Shown here: positions 10,486-52,410 of the stretch, one piece after another
Layout of the letters: each line of letters starts with the position of its first letter
Position numbering within the stretch: position 1 is the first letter of the stretch
Source of the DNA: an uncultured Eubacteriales bacterium
Lineage (GTDB): Bacteria; Bacillota; Clostridia; Christensenellales; UBA1242
DNA length: 52,410 bases
Direction: 5' to 3'
Assembly: GCA_949096025.1 (NCBI GenBank)
Contig: CARXKP010000005.1
Location: forward strand, 1-52,410
Made by a program: the position numbers and the translations under genes
The notes under the pieces: generated by a model
Told to the model about the DNA's origin: nothing
The model's database searches: none
What the model saw: only the letters and a program-made list of their open reading frames with translations

Positions 10486-10513
10486 TTAAATACCTCTAAC
10501 TATAAGCAAAGTT

Positions 10514-10762: not shown

Positions 10763-10797
10763 AGAAATTCCTTATAATTTTATCGATATATAAAAGT

Positions 10798-11154
10798 TTA
10801 TTTTAAATTTTTCATTAAATCTTTAACTCTCAGTTTATTTTCTTCACTTAACTTTTTATAAAGTTCAAAGATTTCTTTTGCTTCCTTATAATTAGCAATA
10901 TCTTCAAAGAAAAATTCTTCAGGAGTAGAACCACAATTTATGATCGCATCTAATAAAACCTCTGAAGGTAAAGTCAACTCTCCACCCTCAAATTTAGAGA
11001 TATATGCTTTAGACCTGTCTATTCTTCCTGATAATTCTCGCGCAGAAAGACCTGCTCTAATTCTCATCATACCAAGTCTATCAATTAAAAATTTTTGATT
11101 AGGCGAAACTTCTTTTTTCATAGTTTCATTCATTGATAAATTTTTATTACTCAT
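10798..11154 (-). CDS. XRE-family HTH regulator, paralogue C (118 aa)
   Basis: LSARELSGRIDRSKAYISKFEGGE HTH segment. C-terminal LSEENKLRVKDLMKNLK. Confidence 0.8.
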   Translation of the reverse strand: MSNKNLSMNETMKKEVSPNQKFLIDRLGMMRIRAGLSARELSGRIDRSKAYISKFEGGELTLPSEVLLDAIINCGSTPEEFFFEDIANYKEAKEIFELYKKLSEENKLRVKDLMKNLK

Positions 11155-11178
11155 TATAATACCTCTTAAGATAAAAAC

Positions 11179-11493
11179 TTATTTTAGTTTTTTCATTAAG
11201 TCCAAAATAGTTTGTTTGCTGTCTGTTGAAAGTTTGTTAAATAAGTCTAAAACATCTTTATTTTCTTTATTATAACTGTCACCCAAATAAACAAAATCTT
11301 GCAAAGTGATGTCTACCATATCGCAAAAATCTAAAAGAGTTTTAACTTTCAATTCAATACTTTTATTTTCTATAGTTGACATAAATTGAGGATTATAACC
11401 TAATCTCAAACTTGCTTCTCTCATAGATAAATTTGCTTTTGTTCGGAAATAACCAATTCTTTTTATAATGTCGTCATAAGTGATTTTTGTCAT
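11179..11493 (-). CDS. XRE-family HTH regulator, paralogue D (104 aa)
   Basis: N-terminus IIKRIGYFRTKANLS parallels paralogue A (ILNRIGYFRNLRNIS). C-terminal LSTDSKQTILDLMKKLK. Confidence 0.8.
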   Translation of the reverse strand: MTKITYDDIIKRIGYFRTKANLSMREASLRLGYNPQFMSTIENKSIELKVKTLLDFCDMVDITLQDFVYLGDSYNKENKDVLDLFNKLSTDSKQTILDLMKKLK

Positions 11494-11508
11494 AAAATTT
11501 TTTCCTTT

Positions 11509-11931
11509 TTATTCTTTATCTAATAAATCATTAATAGGGTAGTTAAAATATTTAGAAATTTCAATTAGGGTTTGTACACTTGGATGCATACCTTTTTTCC
11601 AACGAAGCAAGTTCACTCTTGAATAATGTAAGTCTTTACTAAACTTTCTTTGTGAAATACCCGAATTTTCAATAAGACTAATAATGTTTGCATACAAATT
11701 CTTTTGTTCTAAACTATAAGGCTTAAAATTATTTTCATTGCTCATTTCAAATAAATAATCTACAGTAACGCAAAGATAATTTGCAACTTTTATCAAAGTT
11801 TTTAAACTTGGATAACGATGTTTATATTTATAAAAAGTATTTTCTGAAATAATGCCATCATCAAACATATTTTGTATTGACAAGCTTTTTTCTTCTAAAA
11901 CCTCTTTTACCTCAGATATAAAATTAGACAT
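11509..11931 (-). CDS. Tandem double-HTH XRE-family regulator (140 aa)
   Basis: Two HTH-like repeats: ..SLKTLIKVANYLCVTVDYLF and ISQRKFSKDLHYSRVNLLRWKKG..VQTLIEISKYFNYPINDLL. Confidence 0.7.
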   Translation of the reverse strand: MSNFISEVKEVLEEKSLSIQNMFDDGIISENTFYKYKHRYPSLKTLIKVANYLCVTVDYLFEMSNENNFKPYSLEQKNLYANIISLIENSGISQRKFSKDLHYSRVNLLRWKKGMHPSVQTLIEISKYFNYPINDLLDKE

Positions 11932-11964
11932 TTCTTCAATCCTTAAAATATATCTTTATTATTT

Positions 11965-12010
11965 CCTAATTTGGAGCCATTTTGCTTGCAACTGCCTAAT
12001 TTGATGCCAT
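11965..12010. repeat. Two 16-bp direct repeats (candidate operators) in the divergent intergenic region
   Basis: CCTAATTTGGAGCCAT (11965-11980) and CCTAATTTGATGCCAT (11995-12010). They match at 14 of 16 positions and start 30 bp apart. Confidence 0.6.
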
Positions 12011-12015
12011 ATAAT
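11986..12015 (+). promoter_or_regulatory. Candidate promoter of the SLOG-like gene
   Basis: TTGCAA (11986-11991), 18 nt spacer, TATAAT (12010-12015). Repeat 2 covers the spacer and the edge of the -10. Confidence 0.4.
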
Positions 12016-12047
12016 ATAATTAGAAAAAGTTTTAATAGGAGATAAGT

Positions 12048-12608
12048 ATGAGAGGAGAAAAAATATGTTCATTCTTTGGTCATAGAGAGATTAAGGGTGG
12101 TGAAGAACTTAAAGCGAAAGTCAGTGAGGTTGTTGAAGATTTGATTGTTAATTATGGGGTATTAACTTTCTTATTTGGCAGGCAAAGTGAATTTGACTCA
12201 TTATGTCATTTGGTTGTTACTGAGTTAAAAGAAAAGTATCCTGATATAAAAAGGGTTGCTTACACTTGTAAAAACGAAACTTATGTATTAGAAAGTGAAA
12301 GACTTAAATGGGAAAAGATGTATTCTCATATACTAAAAAAGGATGTTTATTTGCTTGGGGTTGAAGAAGAGTTTGAGCATAAAGCAAAATATGTTGCTGG
12401 AAAAGCAAGTTATGTAGAAAGAAACAAGGCGATGATAGATAATAGTGATTTTTGTGTATTTTATTATGATGAAAATTACGAGCCTAAATTAAAAAAATTT
12501 TCAAAAAGTAAATTATGTTATTATCAACCAAAAAGTGGTACTAAAATTGCTTATGATTATGCCAAGCGAAAAATGAAAACAATAATCAACTTATCCGAAA
12601 ATATGTAA
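12048..12608 (+). CDS. SLOG/DUF1273 (YpsA-like) family protein
   Basis: N-terminal CSFFGHREI, then ..YVERNKAMIDNSDFCVFYY.. and ..SGTKIAYDYAKRKMKTIINL, matching the remembered DUF1273 pattern. The glycine-rich loop is altered (FGRQSEFD). RBS AGGAG. Confidence 0.55.
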   Translation: MRGEKICSFFGHREIKGGEELKAKVSEVVEDLIVNYGVLTFLFGRQSEFDSLCHLVVTELKEKYPDIKRVAYTCKNETYVLESERLKWEKMYSHILKKDVYLLGVEEEFEHKAKYVAGKASYVERNKAMIDNSDFCVFYYDENYEPKLKKFSKSKLCYYQPKSGTKIAYDYAKRKMKTIINLSENM

Positions 12609-12713
12609 GTTGAATATAATAAAGATTTTTATTATTAATATTAAATATATATTTATTAATAAAATAACTAATTAAAAGGGAAAGATTTTGTATTTTGTAA
12701 TAATCTAGTTTGG

Positions 12714-12745
12714 AAGGCTGTATATTAATTTAGGACAGCCTTTTT
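12714..12745 (+). terminator. Rho-independent terminator
   Basis: aaggctgt / acagcctt stem with a 13-nt loop and a T5 run. Confidence 0.6.
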
Positions 12746-12764
12746 GGCTGATAAAGGTGAGAAG

Positions 12765-13520
12765 TTGTCGATTTTAATTTTACTATTACTAGGTCTTGTT
12801 CAAGGATTATGTGAATTTTTGCCTATTTCATCAAGTGGTCACTTGGTGCTTTTATCAAGATTATTTGGTGTAAGTGATAGTTTATTTGTGAGCATAGTTT
12901 TGCATATTGCAACTCTTCTTTCACTTGTTATAGTAATGAGGAAAGAGGTATTTTATTTAATCCGCCACCCATTTTCAAAAGAAGCAATGAGTATTGTAAT
13001 AACAACAATAATTACCTGTGTTGTAACGATTGTTTTAATGCCACTTATCTCTGCTTCATTTGAAGGTGCATTTTTACCTATATCTTTTCTTCTTAGTGCT
13101 ATTCTTTTATTTGTTTCACAAAAACTTAATCGTAATGATGGAAAAGTTAATTTTAAGAGGGCTAGCATAATTGGACTAGCCCAAGGTTTTGCGATTTTTC
13201 CTGGGCTTTCTAGGTCTGGTACTACCATTACAGCAGGAATGATTAGTGGAGCAAGCAAAGAGGAAAGTACAAGATTTTCATTTTTAATTAGTTTGCCGAT
13301 TGTTGTAGGCTCGCTCATTTTGGAAATAGTAAAAATCTTTATCTATAAAGAACCTATTTCTGTCAACTGGCTTGGACTTGCTTTTTCATTTATCGTTGCT
13401 TTTATTGCTGGAATACTAACGATAAAATTTATGCTTAATCTCACTAAAAAACTCAATTTTAAATATTTTGCCTATTATTTAATAGTACTCGCGATAGTTT
13501 CTGCTATATTTTTATGGTAA
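12765..13520 (+). CDS. uppP: Undecaprenyl-diphosphate phosphatase
   Basis: Signature EFLPISSSGHL and FPGLSRSGTTI in a multi-TM protein. The track start 12744 (TTG) lies in the terminator T-run. TTG 12765 after AAAGGTGAG is preferred, but the start remains uncertain. Confidence 0.85.
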   Translation: MSILILLLLGLVQGLCEFLPISSSGHLVLLSRLFGVSDSLFVSIVLHIATLLSLVIVMRKEVFYLIRHPFSKEAMSIVITTIITCVVTIVLMPLISASFEGAFLPISFLLSAILLFVSQKLNRNDGKVNFKRASIIGLAQGFAIFPGLSRSGTTITAGMISGASKEESTRFSFLISLPIVVGSLILEIVKIFIYKEPISVNWLGLAFSFIVAFIAGILTIKFMLNLTKKLNFKYFAYYLIVLAIVSAIFLW

Positions 13521-31514: not shown

Positions 31515-31862
31515 TTATTTTAAACTTTTATCTAATTTATTAGTTTTGAGTGAATAGTAAAGAAAGGTGTAATATGGCGCGATTAGTAAAGGAAGAAATA
31601 TGCCACTAGCACCAATACTCATTCCTTGTTTAAAAGCCTCTTCAAAACTTATTTCATCAAGCTTTAGTTTTTCGTATCTAAAAGAAGGAATTATACAAAA
31701 ACACCAAATATCAACAATAATACAAGAAGTAATTTTAAGAGTGTTCCAGTCTAGTGATTTGTCAAGAAAAAATAACATAGTTATAAATGCAGTAAAGATT
31801 ATAGAATAAATTAAAATTACAATTTTCATTTTTAAAGTTTCTGATTTCATTTTACTCTCCAT
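31515..31862 (-). CDS. Small membrane protein (115 aa)
   Basis: Three or four hydrophobic segments. The start overlaps the recombinase ORF end by 16 nt. Confidence 0.5.
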   Translation of the reverse strand: MESKMKSETLKMKIVILIYSIIFTAFITMLFFLDKSLDWNTLKITSCIIVDIWCFCIIPSFRYEKLKLDEISFEEAFKQGMSIGASGIFLPLLIAPYYTFLYYSLKTNKLDKSLK

Positions 31863-33442
31863 AAAATAATATAATATAACATTATGGATTTTTCATTAAA
31901 TAAATTTATAATGTATAAAAACCTAAATCGAACATTTCGATTTAGGTTGTGCTTGGCGGAGCAATCATTTTGAAATAAGAACTTTTCATTTTCTGCTATG
32001 TTCTCGGTTGCTTCTTCAAAAGTAAATTTACGAAGATTAAACAAGTTATAATAGATTGCTATTTTATCGTCAAAGATATAAACGCTATTAACAAACTTGT
32101 TTATTATTTTGCGTTGATATTCGATATCGTTTATGTTCCCGTCTAAATATTCACCGAGAAGATTTTTCACATCTTCTTTTGTATGAGTGATTATTTTAAC
32201 AAGTTTTAACTTTTTCAATTCTGCTTGTAAATCTTGTTTTTCAATCTCTAAACTTTTTGATTTTTCGTTCATACGCTTTTGCAGTTCTTCGCTATCTGCT
32301 TTGAAAAACATATCAAAACATTTGTCTAAATCTCTGTCGATTTTTTCAATGTGTTTTTCAATGTTTTTAATTTGTAAAGCGGTTGTGTTTATGTTCCACT
32401 TTTCAAGCATTCCATTTGCAATATTTTCGATTTGTTCGTGTGTTAAAACAAAGTTTAATGTTTGTTCTACAACATACTTTTCTAAATCGCTTTTATGCTC
32501 GTTATTCTTTTTGCAAGTATGCTCTTTATATCTTTTAGCACACGCATAATAATGGTGTTGTTTTTTGGTTTTACTTGTTCCACTTATGCCGACCATAGCA
32601 GAGCCACAATAACCGCAAAATGCTTTACCCGTTAAAAGATATTCGATTTTTGCTTTTTGTGTTGCTGGTTGGTGTTTATGTTCTGCAAGTTTGATTTGGA
32701 CTTTGTCGAACAATTCTTTGCTTATAATTGCGGGGCAATATTCTTCGTTTTGTAAATTGCCATTATCAAATACGCCCGTATATTTAATATTTGTTAAGTT
32801 GTTTTGAAAACTATTATAACTTATTGCTTTGCCTTTGTTGGTTTTATAACCTTTTTTGTTAAGTTCTTTTATAATTTGTTTTTTGCTTTTTCCGTTGGCG
32901 TATTCTTCAAATAAATAGCGAATTGCGGGAGCGGTTTTTTCGTCAATGACGATTTTTTTATCTTCCACTTTATAGCCATATAGAATATGCCCGCCTATGT
33001 AATTGCCTTTTATAATACTTTCTCTTATGCCTCTTTTTACTTTTTGGCTAAGGTCTTTTGAATACATTTCGGCAAACATTTCGAGTAAACCTTCCATTAA
33101 AGCACCTTCGGGCGTATCGTTTATTATTTCAGTTGCAGAAACAACACGCACGCCATATTGTGCGAGTTTATGTTTGTATATTGTGTTATCATATTTATTT
33201 CGGCTAAATCTATCGAGTTTATAAACGAGTATTTGTTCAAATTCTTTTTTGCTTGCATCTGCAATAAGTTTTTGAAACTCTGGGCGGTTGTCATTTGTTC
33301 CCGTTGTTGCTCGGTCGATATATTCGCCTATGATATTTATTTTGTTTCGCTCTGCAAATTCTTTGCATACTCTTAATTGCCCTTCAATGCTTTGTTCGGT
33401 TTGAGAGTGCGAAGAAAATCGAGCGTAAATAACTGCATTCAT
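31847..33442 (-). CDS. Large serine recombinase (integrase)
   Basis: N-terminal resolvase catalytic domain MNAVIYARFSSHSQ..EGQ..DRFSRN, recombinase domain, Cys cluster CGYCG..YYAC..C, and a long coiled-coil. 531 aa. Confidence 0.9.
   Translation of the reverse strand: MNAVIYARFSSHSQTEQSIEGQLRVCKEFAERNKINIIGEYIDRATTGTNDNRPEFQKLIADASKKEFEQILVYKLDRFSRNKYDNTIYKHKLAQYGVRVVSATEIINDTPEGALMEGLLEMFAEMYSKDLSQKVKRGIRESIIKGNYIGGHILYGYKVEDKKIVIDEKTAPAIRYLFEEYANGKSKKQIIKELNKKGYKTNKGKAISYNSFQNNLTNIKYTGVFDNGNLQNEEYCPAIISKELFDKVQIKLAEHKHQPATQKAKIEYLLTGKAFCGYCGSAMVGISGTSKTKKQHHYYACAKRYKEHTCKKNNEHKSDLEKYVVEQTLNFVLTHEQIENIANGMLEKWNINTTALQIKNIEKHIEKIDRDLDKCFDMFFKADSEELQKRMNEKSKSLEIEKQDLQAELKKLKLVKIITHTKEDVKNLLGEYLDGNINDIEYQRKIINKFVNSVYIFDDKIAIYYNLFNLRKFTFEEATENIAENEKFLFQNDCSAKHNLNRNVRFRFLYIINLFNEKSIMLYYIILWRVK
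31924..31958 (-). terminator. Perfect 13-bp hairpin inside the 3-prime end of the recombinase ORF
   Basis: aacctaaatcgaa (31930-31942), cat loop, ttcgatttaggtt (31946-31958). On the minus strand it is followed by TTTTTA. Confidence 0.5.
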
Positions 33443-33444
33443 TT

Positions 33445-33804
33445 TTACCCCTTAAAATATTTTTCTAAAAGTTCGATAACTGCTTTTGTATCTTTATCAC
33501 CTATATAATATTTCATAGTTCCATATTTTTCGGAAACAATGCTTATTTCGTTTCTGCATTCTTCTGGGCTTTCAGTCCAGCCAAGCAAATAAAAATGTGT
33601 TGTATCTAAAATGCTTGTTAATTTGGTTAATTTTGATTGTGGTAAATCAACAAGCCCTTTTTCTATTTTGTTAATGGTGGAGCGAGATGTATAACCCATC
33701 TTTTGTGCTAACTCGTCTTGTGTTAGACCTTTTTTTATTCTTAAATCTCTTATTCTTTGCCCCATTTTATGCAAATATTCTTTGTTTTCTTCTGGAATTA
33801 TCAT
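33445..33804 (-). CDS. cI-like XRE-family repressor (119 aa)
   Basis: LTQDELAQKMGYTSRSTINKIEKG HTH segment. The stop lies 2 nt from the recombinase start. Divergent from a Cro-like gene. Confidence 0.8.
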   Translation of the reverse strand: MIIPEENKEYLHKMGQRIRDLRIKKGLTQDELAQKMGYTSRSTINKIEKGLVDLPQSKLTKLTSILDTTHFYLLGWTESPEECRNEISIVSEKYGTMKYYIGDKDTKAVIELLEKYFKG

Positions 33805-33851
33805 AAATTTTCGCTCCTTTTATTAAAAAACTAACTTTATAATAGCATATT

Positions 33852-33946
33852 GTTGAAATAAAATCAACTTTTTTTGAAAAGTTTGTTATTTTTGTTGACT
33901 TATATTCTACAAAGTGTTATTATTTGATTGTTGAATTAAAATCAAC
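33852..33946. promoter_or_regulatory. Three operator-like palindromes, GTTGA-N7-TCAAC
   Basis: GTTGAAATAAAATCAAC (33852-33868), GTTGACTTATATTCTAC (33894-33910, one mismatch) and GTTGAATTAAAATCAAC (33930-33946). Confidence 0.7.
33895..33923 (+). promoter_or_regulatory. Rightward promoter of the Cro-like gene
   Basis: TTGACT (33895-33900), 17 nt spacer, TATTAT (33918-33923). The -35 lies inside the middle operator. A leftward TTGATT-17-TATTAT overlaps the first operator on the minus strand. Confidence 0.5.
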
Positions 33947-33973
33947 AAATCTAATAAAAGGGGGTAGCAGGTT

Positions 33974-34207
33974 ATGACAAACACTCTAAAATTGCGTGCT
34001 TTACTTATTGAAAATAATTTAACAAGTGAAGATGTTGCGAAAGAGTTAGGCATATCAAAGCAAAGTTTCAGTATGAAACTAAATAACAAGCGTGAATTTA
34101 AGTCAAGCGAATTAAATAAACTTGTTGTGTTGCTTAATCTAACCGACAAAGATTTTTTGCCAATTTTTTTTGCAAATCGTGTTGAATTTAATTCAACTTG
34201 CGTGTAA
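33974..34207 (+). CDS. Cro-like small HTH protein (77 aa)
   Basis: LTSEDVAKELGISKQSFSMKLNNKREF HTH-like segment. RBS AAAGGGGG. Confidence 0.65.
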   Translation: MTNTLKLRALLIENNLTSEDVAKELGISKQSFSMKLNNKREFKSSELNKLVVLLNLTDKDFLPIFFANRVEFNSTCV

Positions 34208-34210
34208 ATT

Positions 34211-34390
34211 ATGCAAATACAAGTTGGCACGATTGCTTATAGAGATAAGCAAACAAACAATTTTGCAAAGTCAAAAGCGTTGTATATGAAATACTCGCCC
34301 GAACTTGCAGAAAGTCAAAAAGAGTTTATGCAAAGGGCTTGTGATATGTTTATAACTGATTTATTGATTTTTGCAAAATATGGCTTTTAA
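34211..34390 (+). CDS. Small hypothetical ORF (59 aa), not in the supplied track
   Basis: ATG 34211 to TAA 34388-34390, read by eye (MQIQVGTIAYRDKQ...). Sits 3 nt after the Cro-like stop. No clear RBS. Confidence 0.3.
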   Translation: MQIQVGTIAYRDKQTNNFAKSKALYMKYSPELAESQKEFMQRACDMFITDLLIFAKYGF

Positions 34391-34483
34391 GCGTTGTTTT
34401 AATTGTGGTTAAAGCAATTTATCAAAGAATTTTGAAAACTCGCTACAAATTGAAAAAATGCTTAAAAAGTTGACTTATTTTAT

Positions 34484-34678
34484 ATGAAAAATGGGGTTTC
34501 TAAAATGGCAAAATTAAGTAAAAAGTTTTGCGAAGAATGGGCTTTTTATATTAAGCCTGGAACACGCAAGCGAATTGTATTTAATGAAAAATGTAAAAAG
34601 TGTATGCACGAATGCAAGCAAAGTTATCGTGCTGAAATAATTGCTTGTAAAAATTTTCAAAAAAAGGTAGGTAAATAA
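34484..34678 (+). CDS. Small Cys-containing protein (64 aa; may start at ATG 34505)
   Basis: CKKCMHEC plus two further Cys, possibly a zinc-ribbon-like fold. Lies in the element's early region. Confidence 0.4.
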   Translation: MKNGVSKMAKLSKKFCEEWAFYIKPGTRKRIVFNEKCKKCMHECKQSYRAEIIACKNFQKKVGK

Positions 34679-34681
34679 ACT

Positions 34682-34951
34682 ATGAATTATTTAGGAAAAG
34701 GACTTTTAATTGGTTACAAAACATACAAAAAGGACAATGCAGACAAGCATATTTATTATGTGCTTAATGGCAATAAAGACGATAAAAACGGGCTTTATAA
34801 TGACTTGGAATTTATCACAATCATACAAGACGAACAAACAATCGCAGAGTTAAAGCCACAAATTGTTACTTTTGAAATTGCAAGTCAAACATTTGCAGGA
34901 CAAACAAAAAATAGATTTTTGAATATTCAATCACAAAAGGAAGGTAAATAA
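34682..34951 (+). CDS. Hypothetical protein (89 aa)
   Basis: ORF tightly packed with its neighbours, 3-nt gaps on both sides. Confidence 0.45.
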   Translation: MNYLGKGLLIGYKTYKKDNADKHIYYVLNGNKDDKNGLYNDLEFITIIQDEQTIAELKPQIVTFEIASQTFAGQTKNRFLNIQSQKEGK

Positions 34952-34953
34952 TT

Positions 34954-35211
34954 ATGGACGCAAGAGATATTATTGACGAATTAAGTTTGCAAACTGACGA
35001 TATAGATAGTTTGCTCGGTATTATGGAAAATATCATAATTGAGTTAGATGAAAAAACAAGTAATAGCAGAGATAGAAACAAGATTTTGAAGATTATCGGC
35101 AAATTTTATGTTGTTTGGAAAGGTTTAACAAGTGCAAACAAAACGATTGATAAAGGCTTAAATTCATTATGGTATAAAGTTTTTGAACTTGAAGAAAAGG
35201 ACAACGCATAA
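34954..35211 (+). CDS. Hypothetical acidic protein (85 aa)
   Basis: ORF whose stop overlaps the next start (TAATG). Confidence 0.45.
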   Translation: MDARDIIDELSLQTDDIDSLLGIMENIIIELDEKTSNSRDRNKILKIIGKFYVVWKGLTSANKTIDKGLNSLWYKVFELEEKDNA

Positions 35212-35366
35212 TGAAAAAAGTATCAAAAGTAATTTTTAGTATTTTAGGCATCTTGGCTATTGGTGTTGGTTTGTTCTGCTTGGTGGGTTATCTCTACGGA
35301 CTTGCGACAAGTCAAAACTTTGTAGAGATTATGCACGTTTGGTTGCCTTTTCTCACACAAAAATAA
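35211..35366 (+). CDS. Small membrane protein (51 aa), not in the supplied track
   Basis: MKKVSKVIFSILGILAIGVGLFCLVGYLYGL.., read by eye. ATG overlaps the preceding stop. One clear TM. Confidence 0.4.
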   Translation: MKKVSKVIFSILGILAIGVGLFCLVGYLYGLATSQNFVEIMHVWLPFLTQK

Positions 35367-35429
35367 ACTATCTTTTTTAGATTGCAGAGGCAAAGAAAAC
35401 TCGAACAATCGAAAAAAGTAGTGGAGCGG

Positions 35430-35605
35430 TTTTTTGTGCCACAATGAAAAAGAGAAAGGAAAAGGGCAAAGACTTTTAACTATCTTCTTTGAGTTGCTTT
35501 CGGCACGAACGGAAAGGCACAAAAAATTTAACAAAGTCAAAGGGCTTTTGCGGTTTATGCCTAACGGGAGATAAATAGCAAAAGTTCACTTTACCCTTGA
35601 CTTTG
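35430..35605. other. Structured non-coding region with two long-range inverted repeats
   Basis: ttttttgtgcc (35430-35440) pairs with ggcacaaaaaa (35516-35526). caaagtcaaaggg (35532-35544) pairs with cccttgactttg (35594-35605), leaving one bulged A. Confidence 0.5.
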
Positions 35606-35640
35606 TGAAAAGTGAAACGGAAACGAAGGAGCAAAGAACT

Positions 35641-35886
35641 ATGACAACAACAAGACCAACATACACAAAAACTTTGTGTATTCTTGCAAGCGGTCAATCA
35701 AAGTTATGCGATTTGCTCGAAAGCATACAAACAACAAATAAAATTTTGCATACTGCACAATTTTCAAACGCTGAAAAGGTTAAACGCCTTTTAGGTGTGT
35801 TGGAGTGTCAAACATATTTGATTGATTTAATGCAAAAAGAGTTGCAAGACTTGACGGAATGCTTGCAAAACAAGATGCCAAAATAA
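35641..35886 (+). CDS. Hypothetical protein (81 aa)
   Basis: ATG 35641 follows GAAGGAG. The track's upstream extension has no RBS. Confidence 0.45.
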   Translation: MTTTRPTYTKTLCILASGQSKLCDLLESIQTTNKILHTAQFSNAEKVKRLLGVLECQTYLIDLMQKELQDLTECLQNKMPK

Positions 35887-35889
35887 AGA

Positions 35890-35973
35890 CCGTTTGCTTG
35901 CCTTTTGGTGCGGGGGTGCGGATGGTGTGTGTTACACTTTATGTGTGACACACCGCCACACCCCGCACAAACG
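35890..35973. repeat. GC-rich imperfect hairpin (candidate replication origin / nick site)
   Basis: Outer arms ccgtttg (35890-35896) and caaacgg (35967-35973). Inner arms gtgtgttacac (35927-35937) and gtgtgacacac (35943-35953) around a tttat loop. Middle arms are gtgcgggggtgcgg versus ccgccacaccccgcac. Confidence 0.6.
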
Positions 35974-36057
35974 GTTAGCATCGGCATTTGTTAGGCTGTC
36001 CGCCTACTTGACATTAAGGACACTTAATAGTAGTTAAGTGTAAAAGGAGTATATATT

Positions 36058-36918
36058 TTGAGTTACAAACAAACATTTGTAACAAGAAAGTTATACAATG
36101 ACGGAACGGAAAAATTTATAATAAAAAATGGCTATTCACCGAATACGGAAAAGATGCAGAGAGCAAAAAGAAGAAAAAGGCTATTAAAAGAGATTGAATT
36201 AAAAAGCATTACGCCACAAGGTCAATTAGACTTTGAAAGTATGCAAAAGTATGAAAAGAAGAAAGCCGAATTTGATAGAAAATATGCTTCAAAGTTAGAA
36301 AATGCGGTTCGGTCAATGAATAGGTCAAAAAATAATTTAATGGATATTCTAAAAAGTAACGAGTTTAACTTTTTTGTTACTTTAACATTTGATAAAACTA
36401 AAATTGATAGATTAGACGATAATAAAACACGAAAAGCATTTACACAATGGGCAAATAATATAACAAGAAATTTGCCAAATTTAATTTATGTTGCAGTTCC
36501 CGAATATCACAAAAAAGGCGGTTTGCATTTTCATTTGCTTATAGGTGGAGCAACTGCCGAAGATTTAGGGCTTGAAGATAGCGGAAAGCGTGTAAAGTCT
36601 GGAAGATGCAAAGGTCAAATCATTTTTAATGTTAGCAAGTGGAATAGAAAAGGCTTTTCAACTGCTACGGAAATTTTAGATATAAACGCTGTAAAGTTCT
36701 ATTTGTCAAAATATCTTACAAAATCAAAGGTAGATCCGAGATTTTATAATAAAAAGCGTTTTTATGTTAGTAGAAACATTAAACGCCCACAAGTAGAAAA
36801 ATTTGCTTTTCCTTGCACTGATACATTTGATATTTTTGATAGCATCATAAAGGAAGATTACAACATAGATTACGAAGATACAAAAAAGGAATATTGCGTT
36901 TTAAGTCGTCAATCTTAA
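36058..36918 (+). CDS. HUH-superfamily rolling-circle replication initiator (two-Tyr type)
   Basis: Motif I FFVTLTF, motif II GGLHFHLLIGG (HUH), motif III FYLSKYLTK (YxxKY). TTG start 8 nt after AAAGGAG. Confidence 0.8.
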   Translation: MSYKQTFVTRKLYNDGTEKFIIKNGYSPNTEKMQRAKRRKRLLKEIELKSITPQGQLDFESMQKYEKKKAEFDRKYASKLENAVRSMNRSKNNLMDILKSNEFNFFVTLTFDKTKIDRLDDNKTRKAFTQWANNITRNLPNLIYVAVPEYHKKGGLHFHLLIGGATAEDLGLEDSGKRVKSGRCKGQIIFNVSKWNRKGFSTATEILDINAVKFYLSKYLTKSKVDPRFYNKKRFYVSRNIKRPQVEKFAFPCTDTFDIFDSIIKEDYNIDYEDTKKEYCVLSRQS

Positions 36919-36933
36919 AAGGAGTATTTAACT

Positions 36934-37227
36934 ATGAATAATATTGTTGCTAAAAAATTAAACGCTTTGCAAAATATTTTCAATTCTTATGAGATTTACA
37001 AGGGCAATTATAAAAGTTTGTTAGAAACTGAAATAAGCAACCTTAAAGGCAAATTAAGTGAAGAAGATTATAATAATTTGGTTGCAGGTTTTCAAACATA
37101 CAAACAATATATTTTTAATGTTCTTGCAAGCACTCGAAGAGTTTTTATAAAATTGAGCGAAGAAGAACAAAAACAAGTTGATTTTTCGAGTTTAGATAAT
37201 ATATTTGAAGATTTAGACAACTTGTAA
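36934..37227 (+). CDS. Hypothetical coiled-coil protein (97 aa)
   Basis: ORF with RBS AAGGAG. Last gene before the element's right end. Confidence 0.5.
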   Translation: MNNIVAKKLNALQNIFNSYEIYKGNYKSLLETEISNLKGKLSEEDYNNLVAGFQTYKQYIFNVLASTRRVFIKLSEEEQKQVDFSSLDNIFEDLDNL

Positions 37228-37230
37228 AAA

Positions 37231-37246
37231 TTGCATTCGAATGCAA
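37231..37246. repeat. Perfect 16-bp palindrome
   Basis: ttgcattc|gaatgcaa flanked by A-runs, immediately after the last element ORF. Confidence 0.6.
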
Positions 37247-37254
37247 AAAAAAAG

Positions 37255-37287
37255 TAGTTAGCAAATTATGCTAACTATTTTCTTTTT
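37255..37287. terminator. Bidirectional terminator (serves tRNA-Ser on the minus strand)
   Basis: tagttagca / tgctaacta stem with T-runs on both strands. Confidence 0.6.
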
Positions 37288-37348
37288 AATATAATACCGA
37301 ACATATCGTCAAAATAAACATATATTGGTGTTCTTATATTAAAAGTAT

Positions 37349-37439
37349 TGGCGGGAAGAGAGGGATTTGAACCCTCGCGCCGGTTGCCCGACCTACAGCC
37401 TTAGCAGGGCCGCCTCTTCGACCACTTGAGTATCTCCCC
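37349..37439 (-). tRNA. tRNA-Ser (anticodon GCU), class II with long variable arm, encoded CCA
   Basis: The reverse complement folds by hand. Acceptor stem GGGGAGA/TCTTCCC (one G-U), D arm CTC..GAG, anticodon stem CGGCC/GGCTG with loop CT-GCT-AA, long variable arm, T arm GAGGG-TTCAAAT-CCCTC, then G-CCA. Confidence 0.85.
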
Positions 37440-47380: not shown

Positions 47381-47668
47381 TTGGAGGAAGAGGATAAAAT
47401 AAAAAAAGCACTTATGAAAAAGGCTCTTGGTTATGACGCGAATGATATTGTTGAAGAGTATGTTATAGATGAGGATGGTGGAACTAAGTTATCTAAAAAG
47501 AAGATAACTAAGAAACATTATAGTCCTGATATTTCGGCAGTTAAGGTTTTGCTCGAGAGATACTACAAGACTTATGAAGAAAAAGTGCTTGATATGACTG
47601 ATGAGTCGCTTCAAAAAGAAAAGACGCGTCTTGAAAAATTGTTAAAAGGAGAGGAATGTGGAGATTAA
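47381..47668 (+). CDS. Small protein resembling the C-terminal part of phage small terminase subunits (95 aa)
   Basis: TTG start 6 nt after AAGAGGGAGG. KKALGYDANDIVEEYVIDEDGG..KKKITKKHYSPDISAVKVLLERY resembles, from memory, the ALGY..E..K..K..PD..A..L segment of Firmicutes phage TerS. No N-terminal HTH. Confidence 0.35.
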   Translation: MEEEDKIKKALMKKALGYDANDIVEEYVIDEDGGTKLSKKKITKKHYSPDISAVKVLLERYYKTYEEKVLDMTDESLQKEKTRLEKLLKGEECGD

Positions 47669-47885
47669 CGAATGTAGGCATTTAGTTAAATGTGATTTTT
47701 TGGGTTGCAATAATCTAGCAAAGTATACATTTTCAACAAAAGGTGTAATTAAAAGGAATCTATGCTTTTGTGAAGACTGTTTAAAGGGTATGTATGAAGC
47801 TATTGCCAAAATGCAAACACCAAAATGTATTAAAAGTCCATTTAAGTTAAATAAAAGGTTGGGTAAAGTAAATGATGACAAATGA
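47658..47885 (+). CDS. Small Cys-rich protein (75 aa)
   Basis: Seven Cys including C..C and CFCEDC. Overlaps both neighbouring genes. Confidence 0.45.
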   Translation: MEINECRHLVKCDFLGCNNLAKYTFSTKGVIKRNLCFCEDCLKGMYEAIAKMQTPKCIKSPFKLNKRLGKVNDDK

Positions 47886-49722
47886 AGAAAAAATAGTAAA
47901 AGAAGTAACAGAAGATTTTAATATTCGTGCTCAAAAAAGAAAAAGTTTTGATCTTATATGGCAAATAAATATGAACTTTTTAATGGGCAATCAATATTGT
48001 AACATTGGTTATGGTGGCAACCTTGAAGAATCTGACCGACAATTCTTTTGGCAGGAAAGAGAGATTTTTAACCATATTTCACCAATATATGATATAAGAT
48101 TTGCTAAATTATCTAAAATTAAGCCTTCAATAAATATAATTCCTGCGACTAATGATGAAAGAGATAAAGAAACTGCAAAAGTATCAAAAAAGATTTATAA
48201 TTCAGTTAAAAATAAGCTGGATATAGATGATAAGATTAACCAGGCAATTAAGTGGGCTGAGGTTTGTGGTACTTCTTTTTATAAGGTCGGTTGGAATTCG
48301 AGTGCCGGTCAAACTATTGCCAAAGATGATAGTGGAAGAGAAATAAAAAGTGGCGAGGTTGAGATAACTGTAGTTAGTCCGTTTGAAATTTATCCAGACT
48401 CTTCAACTAGGGAAAATTTGGAAGAGTGTCAAAGTATTATTCACGCAAGAGCTTTTTCTTCAGCGCAGATTAAAGATATGTATGGTATTACTCTTAAAGG
48501 AAAAAAAGTAAATACTTATGCCCTTGACAATGTAAGTACTGGTATTGGCGGATTAGGATTTAACGGAACTAGTACTAAAATTATTGAAAATATTAAAGAT
48601 AACAGCGAAGTTGTCATTGAAAGATATGTAAGACCAACTATTGAATGTCCAAATGGAAGGTTAACCATTGTTGCTGGTGATAAACTGGTTTATGATGGAG
48701 ATTTACCTTATGTCTTTGATGATAAAAAAAGAGATTTCCCATTTATCAGACAGACAAGCAATCTTGAACCAGGTTCTTTTTGGGGAACAAGTATTATTGA
48801 AAGATTAATACCTGTGCAGAGAGCATATAATGCGGTTAAAAATAGAAAACACGAATTTATTAATAGATTATCTTTAGGCGTATTATCAGTTGAAGATGGA
48901 TCAGTAGACTTAGAAAATCTTGAGGATGAGGGCTTGTGTCCTGGTAAAGTACTTGTTTACAGGCAGGGAGCGAGTGAGCCAAAGTATCTTGAAAGTGAAA
49001 GTTTACCTAGTGGAATAGAGGCAGAAGAAAAAAATCTTCTTGAAGAATTTAAAACCATAAGTGGTGTTAATGATCTTGTTGGAGAGGAGATGTTTTCATC
49101 TCAAATGAGTGGAGTTGCTCTTGAACTTATGATTTCTCAGGATGAAACTCGATTAAATGCATCAGTTGAAAGCATTTATAGAGCAACAAAACTTATAGCA
49201 AAGAAGGTGCTTCAGTTATACAAACAATTTGCGATTATACCACGACTTGCCAAGGTTGTTGGCGAAAACGGACAAATTGAAATGTTCTATTTTTCAACCA
49301 GTGATATTACAAGTGATGATATTGAAATTGAATATCAGAAAGATGGACTAAAAACCTTATCTCAACGAAGAGATATGATAATGACACTCCTCGATAAAGG
49401 AGTTCTATCAGATGAAAATAATCAACTTAATAATAAAATGAAAGCTAAAATTATGGAAATGTTAGGAATGGGTATATGGGAAAATGCCCAGGATGTTTCA
49501 GAACTTCATATTAAAAAAGCAGATAATGAAAATTTAAAAATGTTAAATGGAGAGATGATTACAGTTAGCGAGATAGATGACCACGATTTACATATAAATG
49601 AACACATTGCTTTTATGCTTGGTCAAGATTTTGAAAATGCTTCTAAGAAAAATGAAGAACTTGAAAAGTTATTTATGCAGCACATTAATAATCATAAAAA
49701 ATTAAACAAAACGGAGGGTTAA
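47872..49722 (+). CDS. Phage portal protein
   Basis: 616 aa, positioned immediately before the scaffold and capsid genes. Acidic helical C-terminus. General portal-like composition. Confidence 0.7.
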   Translation: MMTNEEKIVKEVTEDFNIRAQKRKSFDLIWQINMNFLMGNQYCNIGYGGNLEESDRQFFWQEREIFNHISPIYDIRFAKLSKIKPSINIIPATNDERDKETAKVSKKIYNSVKNKLDIDDKINQAIKWAEVCGTSFYKVGWNSSAGQTIAKDDSGREIKSGEVEITVVSPFEIYPDSSTRENLEECQSIIHARAFSSAQIKDMYGITLKGKKVNTYALDNVSTGIGGLGFNGTSTKIIENIKDNSEVVIERYVRPTIECPNGRLTIVAGDKLVYDGDLPYVFDDKKRDFPFIRQTSNLEPGSFWGTSIIERLIPVQRAYNAVKNRKHEFINRLSLGVLSVEDGSVDLENLEDEGLCPGKVLVYRQGASEPKYLESESLPSGIEAEEKNLLEEFKTISGVNDLVGEEMFSSQMSGVALELMISQDETRLNASVESIYRATKLIAKKVLQLYKQFAIIPRLAKVVGENGQIEMFYFSTSDITSDDIEIEYQKDGLKTLSQRRDMIMTLLDKGVLSDENNQLNNKMKAKIMEMLGMGIWENAQDVSELHIKKADNENLKMLNGEMITVSEIDDHDLHINEHIAFMLGQDFENASKKNEELEKLFMQHINNHKKLNKTEG

Positions 49723-49723
49723 T

Positions 49724-50431
49724 ATGGAAGAAAATAGAGAACAACCGATTATAATGCCAGCAACCGCTTTAAACGCAGCAGAGGAGAATAGTGCTATGAG
49801 CGAAATCGGCTCTCAAAATGGCGAACTTGGTAAATTTAAAAATTCAAAAGCATTGTTGGATGCATACAACAATCTTCAGTCGGAGTTTACTAAAAAGTGC
49901 CAAATGCTAAGTCAGTTACAAAAAGATAAAACAGATAATTTATTAGATAAATCTTGTGAAAGCAAAGAAAATGTTGATAATTTAACAAAAAATCAAGAAA
50001 TCGACACAAAAAACAGTGAAAAAACCGAAATTATTGATGTTAATTATAAAACTATCAAAGAAAAATCTAATGAAGAAGAATTAAATTTGTTCCTTAAAAA
50101 TAACTTTGATGCAAGCAAATATATAGATGAAATTAAGGACAAGTCCTTGAATTTATCAAATCAAAACCCTTATGAGATTGCTTGGGCAAAGGTACTTCTT
50201 AGTCATATTAAAGAGGGAAATAAAACAAGCGATCCAATTATCAATCAATATGTTTTATCTGATGAAAATGTAAGAAATAAAATTTTAGAAGAATATCTTA
50301 CAAGTTTAAATAATTCTAAGCCACCAATTATTATATCTTCACAGAGCGGAGAGCGGCTGTCCAGCGTTATTGAGGACAGCCCAAAAACGCTTGCCGAGGC
50401 TAAAAAATTGGTTGATAAAATGTTTAGTTAA
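49724..50431 (+). CDS. Phage scaffolding protein
   Basis: Acidic, helical, 235 aa. GKFKNSKALLDAYNNLQSEFTKK is a scaffold-typical segment. Lies between the portal and capsid genes. Confidence 0.65.
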   Translation: MEENREQPIIMPATALNAAEENSAMSEIGSQNGELGKFKNSKALLDAYNNLQSEFTKKCQMLSQLQKDKTDNLLDKSCESKENVDNLTKNQEIDTKNSEKTEIIDVNYKTIKEKSNEEELNLFLKNNFDASKYIDEIKDKSLNLSNQNPYEIAWAKVLLSHIKEGNKTSDPIINQYVLSDENVRNKILEEYLTSLNNSKPPIIISSQSGERLSSVIEDSPKTLAEAKKLVDKMFS

Positions 50432-50492
50432 CAATTTTAAATTGTTTTTCCAGATAAATATTGATCATTACTAATTTAATAATGGAGGAAAA

Positions 50493-51695
50493 ATGGTAAC
50501 ATTAAATACTGCTGAAAGTGCATTAAAAAATGTCTATCTTGGCGTTGTTGCAAACCAACTTAATGTAAATGCAAATCCACTTTTAGCAAAAATTAAAAAA
50601 TCTACTAAAGATGTGTGGGGAAAGGAAGTAAGAAAACTTGCGCCTTTTGGAATCAACGGTGGTATTGGTGCAGGTAGTGAAACTGATGCTCTTCCTACTC
50701 CATCTGGAAATGGTTATGTGCAATTTATTGCAGACCTTAAAAACCTTTATGGTAAAATTGAAATTTCTGATAAAGCAGTAAGAGCATCAGCAAACAATAT
50801 TGGTGCTTTTGTCAATCTTTTATCAGACGAAATGGAAGGACTTGTAAAAGCAAGTTCATTTAACCTTGGTAGAATGTTGTATGGCGATGGTAGTGGGAAA
50901 CTCGCAACAGCATCTGCAGTAACTGGAACAACTGTTACTTGCGATAAAGTAAACAACTTAATTGAAGGTATGCTTATTGATGTTTTTACTGGTTCTACAA
51001 AGAAAAATACTGCACCTTTAAAAATTACTTATGTAGATAGAGTAAATAAAAAGTTTAATTATTCTACAACATCTTCTGTAACTATTGCGACAAACGATGT
51101 GTTTTATGTTCAAGGTTCAAAAGATTATGAAATAAGTGGACTTGGTAAAATATTTGATACCAGTGCAACTTCAATTTATGGTGTAAGCAAAACTGATTAC
51201 CCTTGGCTTAAGCCTTATGTATCTTCAACATCAACAGAAATTAGTGATATTCTTATTCAACAGGCTATTGATTTTCTTGATATGAATAATGATAGTAAAA
51301 TTAACTTTATATCTTGTTCAAGTGTTGTAAGACGAGCATATCAGGAATATCTTGGTGCTTATAGAAGAAATATTGATATTGCAGAACTTGATGGTGGATA
51401 TAAGACTATAGCACACAATGGTATTCCAGTGGTAGCCGATAGATTTGTTGATGACGATACTATGTATTTGTTAAACACAAATGATTTCACTCTCCACGAA
51501 CTTTGTGATTGGCAATGGCTTGAAGGAGAAGACGGAAGAATTTTAAAACAAAATCAGGGTTATCCAACGTATAGTGCAACTCTTGTTAAATATGCAGAAC
51601 TTATATGTGATAAGCCTTGTGGACAAGCAAAGATTAAAGGAATAAAATCAACAGTTACTAATCCATTTGTTTCCAACAGCGAAGCAAAAGCATAA
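50493..51695 (+). CDS. Phage major capsid protein
   Basis: 400 aa, strong RBS GGAGG, position after the scaffold gene. FVNLLSDEMEGLVKASSFNLGRMLYGDGSGKLA is a coat-protein-like segment. Confidence 0.7.
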   Translation: MVTLNTAESALKNVYLGVVANQLNVNANPLLAKIKKSTKDVWGKEVRKLAPFGINGGIGAGSETDALPTPSGNGYVQFIADLKNLYGKIEISDKAVRASANNIGAFVNLLSDEMEGLVKASSFNLGRMLYGDGSGKLATASAVTGTTVTCDKVNNLIEGMLIDVFTGSTKKNTAPLKITYVDRVNKKFNYSTTSSVTIATNDVFYVQGSKDYEISGLGKIFDTSATSIYGVSKTDYPWLKPYVSSTSTEISDILIQQAIDFLDMNNDSKINFISCSSVVRRAYQEYLGAYRRNIDIAELDGGYKTIAHNGIPVVADRFVDDDTMYLLNTNDFTLHELCDWQWLEGEDGRILKQNQGYPTYSATLVKYAELICDKPCGQAKIKGIKSTVTNPFVSNSEAKA

Positions 51696-51707
51696 TTAAC
51701 TTAAACT

Positions 51708-51749
51708 GGGCAAAAAACGGTGAAAATATAATGTTTTTTGCCCTTTTTT
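51708..51749 (+). terminator. Rho-independent terminator after the capsid gene
   Basis: gggcaaaaaac / gttttttgccc 11-bp stem followed by T6. Confidence 0.75.
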
Positions 51750-51815
51750 AAGAAAAAAATAAAGAATTCTTAAATTAAAAGGCAACTTTTTAAATTTAAG
51801 ATAAAAGAGGATGAA

Positions 51816-52133
51816 ATGAAAAATCTTATTAAAATAGATTGCGACAATTTCTTTATAAGCGAAAGACTAAAATTTATTGATAGTAGTTATGTTATATATT
51901 ATAACCTAAGTGACCGATGCTATGAAGTACATTCTATAGAACAATATAAAAATAGTTATTGTTTTAAAGTGCCATATAGAGAACTTGACGAACGAACTCT
52001 TTTCTTTGCCAAAAAGACAAGAAGTGAAAATAGATATAAACTTATTAAGGAAATTGAAGAAAATAATCGTCTTTTATATGAAAAAAACATAAAAAATCAA
52101 GTTAATTTACTTAAGGAGGCAATATGCTTGTAA
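51816..52133 (+). CDS. Hypothetical phage protein (105 aa)
   Basis: ORF with RBS AGAGGA, within the head module. Confidence 0.5.
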   Translation: MKNLIKIDCDNFFISERLKFIDSSYVIYYNLSDRCYEVHSIEQYKNSYCFKVPYRELDERTLFFAKKTRSENRYKLIKEIEENNRLLYEKNIKNQVNLLKEAICL

Positions 52134-52410
52134 AAGATGTGATTATAAAAGCCTGTGATTTTATTGATAATGATTCCTTGTCTGAGTTGCTTAAAAATAA
52201 TCTTTCTTTAAGCGACGAATTGCAAGATATGCTTAATAAACTTATTAAATGCTTTAATTTGGTTCGTAATGAAATTGCTAGTGAGTACTTGCCTATTGTT
52301 AAAATTGATGTCGTTAGACCTAGTCAAAATAAAATAGAATTAACTGCTCTTTCATCAAAGTTACTTGAAGTTATCTCAATAAGAGATAGTAAGGGTCATA
52401 CTTTAAAGTA
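52124..52410 (+). CDS. Hypothetical phage protein, 5-prime partial (runs off the window end)
   Basis: ATG 52124 lies 4 nt after AAGGAGG. The frame stays open to the end of the window (MLVKDVIIKACDFIDNDSLSELLKNN...). Not in the track because it has no stop. Confidence 0.5.
   Translation, partial: MLVKDVIIKACDFIDNDSLSELLKNNLSLSDELQDMLNKLIKCFNLVRNEIASEYLPIVKIDVVRPSQNKIELTALSSKLLEVISIRDSKGHTLK

Follow-up and report, generated by a model that had tools for sequence, protein, structure and literature searches.

The small integrated elements TLCphi and RS1phi of Vibrio cholerae have no morphogenesis genes and spread by way of a helper filamentous phage; TLCphi, with 5,364 bp, encodes a pII-like Rep (Cri) and an RstR-like repressor (TlcR), its packaging helper being fs2 (PMC3545932). 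In streptococci, integrative mobilisable elements (IMEs) with both an integrase and a putative relaxase of the rolling-circle replication (RCR) initiator type are a described class; the putative relaxases are of the Rep_trans/MobT, Rep_2, PHA00330 and Viral_Rep types, and 35 of 118 streptococcal IMEs lack a coupling protein (PMC5357655, PMC5704250). Many small integrated elements show no visible transfer route at all, the so-called "hitcher" problem (PMC11389934). A concrete case of this problem is the element analysed here, found in a stretch of 52,410 nucleotides (the window; assembly GCA_949096025.1, contig CARXKP010000005.1, positions 1 to 52,410) from an uncultured Eubacteriales bacterium of the Christensenellales lineage UBA1242.

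The element is intact, integrated and recently mobile. It joins a lysogeny module, with a large serine integrase and a cI/Cro-type switch, to a replication module which by sequence comparison is of the filamentous-phage (inovirus) type. A preliminary description of the sequence had noted this pairing of a phage-style switch with rolling-circle replication, and both modules do lie within the ends as now defined. The reading we favour, plausible though somewhat short of probable, is that of a helper-dependent integrative rolling-circle element, built of a lysogeny module and a replication module of Gram-positive inovirus type, and most likely exported by a filamentous phage.

Ends of the element and site-specific integration

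The exact ends could be fixed because a near-identical copy occupies a second, different insertion site. On two contigs from other samples (L002 and L004), the same element, 99.93% identical over 5,421 bp, adjoins tRNA-Ser(UGA) and is bordered on either side by host genes that differ from those in the window, where the element adjoins tRNA-Ser(GCU). Identity between the window and L002 begins at 31954 and ends within the tRNA, and the element spans 31960-37354 (5,395 bp), with the direct repeat TGGCGG at both junctions (31954-31959 and 37349-37354). This repeat corresponds to the terminal CCGCCA of tRNA-Ser. Site-specific recombination has thus placed the element in the last 6 nt of tRNA-Ser genes, and the 99.93% identical copy at another tRNA-Ser gene indicates recent movement. 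The ends first proposed (31847 and 37287) are therefore superseded, whereas the location beside the 3′ end of tRNA-Ser(GCU) stands. Alignment with related genomes had been suggested as a means of defining attL, attR and the empty site: attL and attR were obtained from the second insertion, but exact matches to the host proteins on either side led to occupied sites only.

The reconstructed attP, GTTCTTATATTAAAA-(18 nt including TGGCGG)-TTTTGAAATAAGAAC, is arranged about its core with imperfect dyad symmetry, in the manner expected of a serine integrase site. It is short (about 50 bp) and has a small crossover core, and the junction repeats are likewise short, 6-10 bp at six independent insertions. 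The P′ arm is conserved in L002 and in the relatives L006, L017 and L018. The predicted attP junction reads TTCTTATATTAAAAGTATTGGCGGAGCAATCATTTTGAAATAAGAAC and the predicted empty attB ...GATTTAGGTTGTGCTTGGCGGGAAGAGAGGGATTTGAACCC. Insertion shifted the tRNA gene's own terminator hairpin 5.4 kb leftward, to a position inside the host-derived tail of the integrase open reading frame (ORF). All Rfam matches other than the tRNA were far below threshold. In one sample (L075, 2167-3376), a transposase gene of insertion sequence (IS) type with an rve domain substitutes for the sequence left of window position 37553, so that the tRNA-Ser gene and the element are not on that contig.

The large serine recombinase of the preliminary description was confirmed: PF00239, PF07508 and PF13408, the domains of this family, all score above their cut-offs, and the match to phrog_95 is strong (Table 1). 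The N-terminal YARFSS motif places the predicted catalytic serine at residue 10. The best NCBIfam matches are CcrB, CcrA and XisF, all below the equivalog cut-offs. Only 31960-33442 is encoded by the element; the last 35 codons and the stop (31847-31954) are host DNA. Because the gene reads across its own attP, the tail of the protein varies with the insertion site, from 531 aa in the window to 506 aa in L002 and a predicted 520 aa in the circle. At least nine distinct C-terminal tails follow ...FLFQNDCSA within the 90%-identity cluster of the integrase, a diversity that implies many insertion sites or flanks. In one member of this cluster (P0221, 711 aa), the ORF crosses attL and continues in frame into a host ORF, from which it takes up about 210 residues; this shows how an attP lying within a gene produces chimeric tails. 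As the tail differs between the free and the integrated state, this layout could be a regulatory device. Transfer RNA targets are unusual for serine integrases. The present enzyme has a short attP, recognises tRNA-Ser 3′ ends across different bacteria and leaves the tRNA restored, features that may make it of practical value. Some small scaffolds labelled "Bacteriophage sp." match the integrase and have nothing else in common with the element.

The element is a member of a conserved family on which purifying selection acts. Its genes follow one and the same order in L006, L017, L018, L019/L022, L021 and L062, with Rep identities of 58-86%: integrase, repressor, cro, ORF59, ORF64 (in some), ORF89, ORF85, a structured non-coding region, ORF81, Rep and ORF97. 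The metagenome-assembled genomes (MAGs) concerned are of gut origin and are labelled as Lachnospiraceae, Christensenella/Christensenellaceae or unclassified Clostridia; Rep and integrase, for which a joint search had been proposed at the outset, occur together in them. In these relatives, which are inserted at the 3′ ends of tRNA-Ser genes with UGA, GCU and CGA anticodons, the core is always the same and both arms, P and P′, are conserved. Ratios of non-synonymous to synonymous substitution (dN/dS), computed against L006, L017 and L018, are 0.06-0.46 for every gene except in the most diverged repressor pair (0.67), several of the pairs being saturated (dS >1). With such ratios, the element is not a decayed remnant, a state which the preliminary description had named as one that would overturn its interpretation.

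These data bear directly on two alternatives. One is that the element is a defective inovirus prophage, left by a one-off deletion which removed the morphogenesis genes. Complete or near-complete relatives with such genes do exist (L023 and L077, see below), but lineages with as little as 58% Rep identity retain the minimal architecture, dN/dS stays far below 1, the sequence between the ends contains neither a pseudogene nor a truncated structural gene, and two near-identical copies occupy different sites. The second copy, the conserved architecture and the dN/dS values contradict a deletion remnant, which we consider very improbable indeed. The other alternative is an integrative rolling-circle plasmid that has no dedicated horizontal route: it would leave the chromosome, replicate and insert itself again within one lineage, and move between cells only by chance, through transformation or generalised transduction. 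This would agree with the failure to detect a transfer function, a helper or an extrachromosomal form, and with the presence of the element in all read contigs that span the window locus in this species. Relatives are spread, however, over Lachnospiraceae, Christensenella/Christensenellaceae and Clostridia MAGs, many flanks and several tRNA-Ser isoacceptors, a distribution that requires frequent horizontal movement, and every gene, including the integrase, is under purifying selection. Movement by chance alone is accordingly judged improbable.

Replication module and lysogeny switch

The Rep protein scores 55 bits against PF23343 (cut-off 27.8), and phrog_3419, which it also matches, is annotated as "rolling circle DNA replication initiation". 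Motif I (FFVTLTFD), H157-x-H159 and Y215-x-x-K-Y219 are invariant in an alignment of 18 homologues, as befits a member of the G2P/ORF2 family and in agreement with the two-tyrosine HUH Rep first described. The best matches in phage collections are circular gut Inoviridae ("bajarodino virus") encoding Zot, with 37-43% identity over 97-98% of the protein, compared to 23-32% over 55-77% for plasmid Reps; the family also includes Reps of small Gram-positive RCR plasmids. Two integrated prophages are closer still. L023 encodes a Rep with 51% identity, a homologue of ORF89 (41%) and Zot (PF05707, E 1e-11). L077 features a short Rep (56%), an ORF89 homologue (54%), a 654-aa repeat protein with a C-terminal transmembrane (TM) anchor, a 37-aa TM protein, a 272-aa protein with TM and P-loop (the assignment as ATPase being weak) and a tyrosine integrase.

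No gene of the family is better conserved than ORF89 (dN/dS 0.06-0.07), whose homologues adjoin Rep in both L023 and L077. A sequence search against the PDB found nothing. The AlphaFold 2 (AF2) model has five strands (pLDDT 89), and most of its Foldseek matches in PDB and BFVD are single-stranded DNA-binding protein (SSB), PriB or other proteins of the oligonucleotide/oligosaccharide-binding (OB) fold (E 6e-4 to 4e-3, TM-score about 0.5-0.59). ORF89 is thus predicted to be an OB-fold protein that binds single-stranded DNA (ssDNA), a gene V analogue linked to Rep; to judge from the model and from the position of the homologues, the element would share with filamentous phages a small ssDNA-binding protein next to its Rep.

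A 20-nt motif, CTACTTGACATTAAGGACAC, overlaps a TTGACA -35-like box and is a candidate Rep nick site on grounds of its distribution. Nearly all loci of the Rep family, down to about 36% Rep identity, have a copy with 0-4 mismatches next to or within rep, among them those of bajarodino viruses 1, 31 (1 mismatch) and 16; no copy was found in L023 or L077. In relatives with long Reps (L025-L029, L007), the motif lies within the 3′ part of rep and encodes a conserved ...PYLT(L/I)RTL... peptide; since it is in the rep frame there, the same bases are constrained both as DNA site and as protein. Just upstream of the motif is a GC-rich hairpin, at the place of which relatives have GC-rich sequence of other composition. 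Farther upstream, 35367-35640 shows high nucleotide conservation across 5 relatives, with a consensus structure of 80 pairs, 8 of them with compensatory changes, and matches no Rfam family. This region may be the minus-strand origin, a packaging signal or both. Both of these structures had been noticed beforehand, and their ssDNA folds are far more stable than those of shuffled sequences (Table 1). The element thus has Rep, ORF89 and the rep-adjacent motif in common with inoviruses that carry morphogenesis genes.

The switch consists of a cI-like repressor and a divergent Cro-like gene, both of them as first described. The repressor gene ends 2 nt before the integrase start, and the two are probably co-transcribed. 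Its product gives a weak match to the RstR family (27 bits, under the NCBIfam cut-off of 80), and its dN/dS values are the highest in the element (0.23-0.67, the upper value from the most diverged pair). The palindrome TGTTGAAWTWAAWTCAAC occurs 7 times in the window with up to two mismatches, against 0.46 expected. The three operators noted previously were recovered as exact copies, but not all in the intergenic switch: O1 and O2 are in the divergent intergenic region, one on either side of a good rightward promoter, and O3 is inside the 3′ end of cro.

Table 1. Features of the element and of neighbouring sequence in the window
Feature	Position	Strand	Basis or remarks
Large serine integrase, 531 aa	31847-33442	-	Resolvase, Recombinase and Zn_ribbon_recom, E 1e-32 to 5e-12; phrog_95 integrase, E 4e-118
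Host tRNA-Ser terminator hairpin with T-run	31920-31948	-	B′ side of attL; read from sequence
attL core TGGCGG, left copy of repeat	31954-31959	.	Start of identity with L002; same core in every integrated tRNA-Ser relative
P′ arm of attP, ending in TTTTGAAATAAGAAC	31960-31982	.	attP reconstruction; imperfect inverted repeat with P arm
cI-like helix-turn-helix (HTH) repressor, 119 aa, no peptidase domain	33445-33804	-	HTH_3, E 3e-13
Divergent promoter/operator region	33839-33946	.	Repeat family, pattern search, promoter scan
Candidate promoter P_L	33867-33839	-	Promoter scan
Candidate promoter P_R	33895-33923	+	Promoter scan
Operators O1, O2, O3	33851-33868, 33929-33946, 34180-34197	.	18-bp palindrome, zero mismatches
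Cro-like HTH protein, 77 aa	33974-34207	+	DUF739, E 2.8e-8; HTH_19
ORF59	34211-34390	+	No family matches; candidate directionality factor
ORF64, Cys-rich	34484-34678	+	No family matches; candidate directionality factor
ORF89, predicted OB-fold ssDNA-binding protein	34682-34951	+	AF2 model and Foldseek
ORF85, conserved	34954-35211	+	Homologues 50-66% identical, dN/dS 0.24
ORF51, single TM, accessory	35211-35366	+	One hydrophobic span
Structured non-coding region, 274 nt, three hairpin domains	35367-35640	+	ssDNA fold, z -6.1 versus shuffles
ORF81, conserved	35641-35886	+	64-69% identical in L006 and L017; dN/dS 0.17-0.32
GC-rich long hairpin (core 35908-35971)	35890-35985	+	ssDNA fold -30.6 kcal/mol, z -5.1 versus shuffles
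20-nt motif, candidate Rep nick site (plus-strand origin)	36004-36023	+	Motif search in Rep-family loci
Rolling-circle Rep, 286 aa, HUH, two Tyr, G2P/ORF2 family	36058-36918	+	PF23343 REP_ORF2-G2P, E 9e-15; phrog_3419, E 5e-25
ORF97, conserved helical protein, acidic C-terminus	36934-37227	+	27 homologues, mean column identity 87%
Bidirectional terminator-like hairpin closing the rightward operon	37251-37281	.	Promoter/terminator scan
P arm of attP (GTTCTTATATTAAAA, 37330-37344) and attR core TGGCGG (37349-37354)	37330-37354	.	attP reconstruction, relatives
tRNA-Ser(GCU), integration target, kept intact	37349-37439	-	ARAGORN; Rfam tRNA, 54 bits
Portal protein gene	47872-49722		phrog_156, E 1e-37
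Major head protein gene	50493-51695		phrog_14242, E 5e-53

Probable transfer by a helper and comparison with known elements

Searches of Pfam, PHROGs and NCBIfam detected no gene for a morphogenesis ATPase, coat, adsorption, capsid or terminase protein, coupling protein or type IV secretion system (T4SS) in the element, so that the absence of structural and transfer genes noted previously holds inside exactly defined ends. PADLOC reported no defence system, and no further function was recognised by any of these four resources. The lack of a pI/Zot-like ATPase match in Pfam, PHROGs and NCBIfam is to be read against the detection of Zot in L023 by the same method. The integrase and Rep are the only ORFs of more than 120 aa within the ends; there is no large secreted protein that could serve in adsorption, and a small TM major coat protein is likewise missing, ORF51, the sole ORF with a TM span, not being conserved in the family. 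Since it has no particle or transfer genes, the element probably needs a helper for its spread, and the inovirus-type replication module makes a filamentous phage, not the nearby tailed prophage, the likeliest one.

The following course of events would be consistent with the gene content. In the integrated state, the repressor would occupy the 18-bp operators, shutting the rightward promoter, and the repressor-integrase transcript would be autoregulated. Derepression would allow expression of the operon from Cro to ORF97, and the integrase, together with a directionality factor encoded by one of the small ORFs, would excise the circle. Rep may then nick at CTACTTGACATTAAGGACAC, downstream of the GC-rich hairpin, the displaced plus strand being coated by the putative ssDNA-binding protein ORF89, and the conserved hairpin region would serve as minus-strand origin and/or packaging signal. 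The morphogenesis proteins of a co-resident filamentous phage would most likely export the ssDNA, as for TLCphi and RS1phi in Vibrio. In a new cell, the integrase would re-insert the element at the 3′ end of tRNA-Ser and restore the tRNA.

The likeness to TLCphi and RS1phi is one of size, content and logic: in both cases, a pII/G2P-like rolling-circle Rep is combined with an HTH repressor whose gene diverges from those for replication, so as to form a filamentous-phage type of replication module with its repressor, and morphogenesis genes are missing (PMC3545932). TLCphi and RS1phi, however, integrate by means of host XerCD at dif, whereas the window element relies on its own large serine integrase at tRNA-Ser, resides in a Gram-positive, Clostridium-like gut host, and has its own SSB-like gene and a Cro-like partner for the repressor. 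Closest in logic to TLCphi and RS1phi, it is nevertheless not a member of that group. It is possible, if rather less than probable, that it stands for a family of filamentous-phage satellites, the first to be recognised outside Vibrio, about 5.4 kb in size and parasitising resident inoviruses of Gram-positive gut Clostridia, in which an inovirus replication core (Rep, SSB-like protein, origin and structured plus-strand signal) would be combined with autonomous lysogeny through a cI/Cro switch and a serine integrase. Such a satellite, if real, would be of considerable interest. Its existence would lead one to expect a helper, a shared origin motif and a packaging signal; and as nearly all that is known of the inoviruses of Gram-positive gut anaerobes comes from sequence, a widespread, exactly delimited derivative that depends on a helper would give a handle on them.

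Several observations weigh against export by a filamentous phage. The Foldseek scores of ORF89 are modest (E about 1e-3, TM-score about 0.55), and one of the matches is PrgE, from the conjugative plasmid pCF10; conjugative mobilisation, too, is compatible with the presence of an RCR Rep and an SSB-like gene. Rep lacks the C-terminal extension of about 100 aa that is typical of most inovirus Reps, the element has no conserved coat-like protein, and the repressor is devoid of an autocleavage domain, which leaves no evident route of induction. No helper inovirus was identified in the window, the rest of the host genome lying outside it. Neither an excised circle nor an attP junction was seen. Mining for circular junctions, as recommended in the preliminary description, was unsuccessful: the window-type P′ arm AGCAATCATTTT and the element itself are absent from IMG/VR, and the predicted 520-aa integrase of the circular form is absent from a collection of 15 billion proteins. 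A degenerate attP scan of IMG/VR and JGI metagenomes also gave zero matches, which says little because its pattern fits the P′ arm of L006/L017 type, AGCATATCATTT, and not the window type. Contigs of 5.4-5.8 kb with Rep homologues, considered as possible circles, were rejected as integrated copies or fragments, none of those tested being circular.

The points in favour of conjugation are best considered with the main rival explanation, an IME. Following excision, Rep would act as a non-canonical relaxase at the same origin, and ssDNA would leave the cell through the coupling protein and T4SS of a co-resident integrative and conjugative element (ICE) or conjugative plasmid. The element does fit a loose definition of an IME with a putative relaxase of RCR type: it has its own integrase and defined att sites, and a Rep (PF23343) with a candidate nick site, which would be a putative relaxase and may correspond to the PHA00330 class. 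Like streptococcal RCR IMEs (Rel_PHA00330, Rel_PF01719, MobT; Coluzzi 2017, Guedon 2017), it is small and integrated, with an integrase that faces outward at one end and an RCR Rep as the sole DNA-processing enzyme; such IMEs often reside at tRNA 3′ ends, and some of them have no coupling protein. That the Rep family extends to small Gram-positive RCR plasmids, and that ORF89 resembles SSB-like proteins of conjugative plasmids, also speaks for mobilisation. Against it, Pfam and PHROGs detected no FtsK, TcpA or VirD4 domain in any ORF of the element, nor was a relaxosome accessory gene found. Coupling proteins are common in IMEs, though not obligatory, and TcpA is encoded by 19 of 21 streptococcal IMEs of PHA00330 type. 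Streptococcal IMEs at tRNA genes use tyrosine integrases, while their serine integrases interrupt protein-coding genes, and neither an inovirus-type SSB nor a conserved ssDNA hairpin region has been described for them. Moreover, a relaxase role of RCR-type Reps has only been proposed, and inoviruses, rather than plasmids or ICEs, encode the proteins most closely related to Rep and ORF89. We therefore regard mobilisation as somewhat unlikely. A preprint on an "IME1" of Dehalococcoides was rejected as a parallel, as it concerns unrelated elements of 21-28 kb.

Packaging by a tailed phage was also considered. The region 47381-52410 holds a tailed-phage structural cluster that continues past the end of the window, with portal and major head genes (47872-51695) 10 kb away from the element. 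A minimalist satellite akin to the PICMIs (minimalist chromosomal islands inducible by phages) could be induced by such a helper and have its rolling-circle multimers packaged in helper capsids; PICMIs indeed have very few genes, none of them for capsid remodelling, and are packaged as concatemers (PMC10803314), and a cI/Cro-type switch would be in keeping with this lifestyle. But terS, a pac- or cos-related gene, AlpA and a primase-type replicase are all missing from the element, and its replication module is of ssDNA-phage type. Further, hrcA-grpE-dnaK-dnaJ lie between the element and the tailed-phage genes, and the second insertion site (L002) has no tailed-phage neighbour. With the ends fixed by that insertion, the portal and head genes belong to something other than the element, contrary to the possibility, raised earlier, that larger genes outside would make it part of an ordinary prophage. 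A satellite of a tailed phage appears decidedly improbable.

The remaining comparisons delimit the element further. Gut and Gram-positive inoviruses (bajarodino viruses, L023, L077) have homologous Rep (37-56%) and ORF89 (41-54%) proteins and an HTH repressor beside their genes for replication, with integrase-mediated integration in some cases. A Zot/pI-like ATPase, a large adsorption protein and small coat-like TM proteins set them apart from the window element, which has none of these. Actinomycete integrative and conjugative elements (AICEs) of the pSAM2 type likewise combine integrase, RCR Rep and repressor at a tRNA 3′ end; their integrase is of tyrosine and not of serine type, their Rep is of the RepSA family (15.7 bits for the window Rep, cut-off 34), and they are self-transmissible through an FtsK-like Tra protein, which is missing here. 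PICMIs, phage-inducible chromosomal islands (PICIs), capsid-forming PICIs (cf-PICIs), P4-like satellites and PICI-like elements (PLEs) are integrated, helper-dependent and compact, PICMIs being comparably reduced in gene content, but an HUH rolling-circle Rep of the inovirus family occurs in none of them. Primase/helicase replicases, AlpA, terS, capsid-remodelling genes or, for PICMIs, a fis-adjacent site characterise these satellites and are all absent from the window element. It thus fails the defining features of an autonomous inovirus, PICI, cf-PICI, P4-like satellite, PLE, PICMI or AICE. The earlier statement that it belongs to none of the well-described satellite families holds for PICI, P4-like, PLE and cf-PICI; its combination of features is not without precedent, given TLCphi and RS1phi (PMC3545932) and the RCR IMEs (PMC5357655).

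Small reading frames and divergent relatives

Of the six or seven tiny ORFs mentioned in the preliminary description, six of 51-89 aa were confirmed (59, 64, 89, 85, 51 and 81 aa, in this order), followed after Rep by the final 97-aa ORF. ORF59 and ORF64 have no matches in Pfam, PHROGs, NCBIfam or PADLOC; homologues are present in relatives (dN/dS 0.23-0.46), and both are candidates for the excision directionality factor. The 51-aa ORF with a single TM span is present as described, but is not part of the family core: it is absent from L006, L017, L018 and L062, in which the non-coding region directly follows ORF85.

ORF97 is conserved (dN/dS 0.15-0.24), and its AF2 model is poor (pLDDT 67). 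The idea that it represents a split-off C-terminal domain of Rep was rejected. It ends in an acidic LDN(I/L)FEDL(D/E)N sequence, and many long inovirus-type Reps end in (E/D)(I/V)GL(L/I)D; either terminus could act as a short motif for docking to a host protein.

A subfamily of three loci (L064, L065 and L078; Rep 72-73% identical) is inserted at the 3′ end of tRNA-Asn with the repeat CTTGGCTCCCCA. These loci have no ORF97 and feature extra ORFs of 205-211 aa and 109-180 aa. In L062 (3809-4384) and L063 (1622-2197), an extra 191-aa ORF overlaps the start of rep; its product displays weak similarity to sigma-70 region 2 and an HTH, below the cut-off (E 8e-4). Modules of Rep and ORF89 accompanied by a tyrosine instead of a serine integrase are evident in L024 (10004-14468), where the module adjoins tRNA-Ser(GGA) and a DpnI-like gene is also present, and in L020 (5701-8983). 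This suggests exchange of integration modules around one replication core. Finally, L007-L010 contain, at approximately 9500-12900, a unit of about 3 kb with a long Rep (386 aa, 39% identical), an HTH gene in reverse orientation and two small ORFs, but no integrase; it adjoins a gene for an Fe-dependent repressor and dnaN, and its left flanks differ between contigs.

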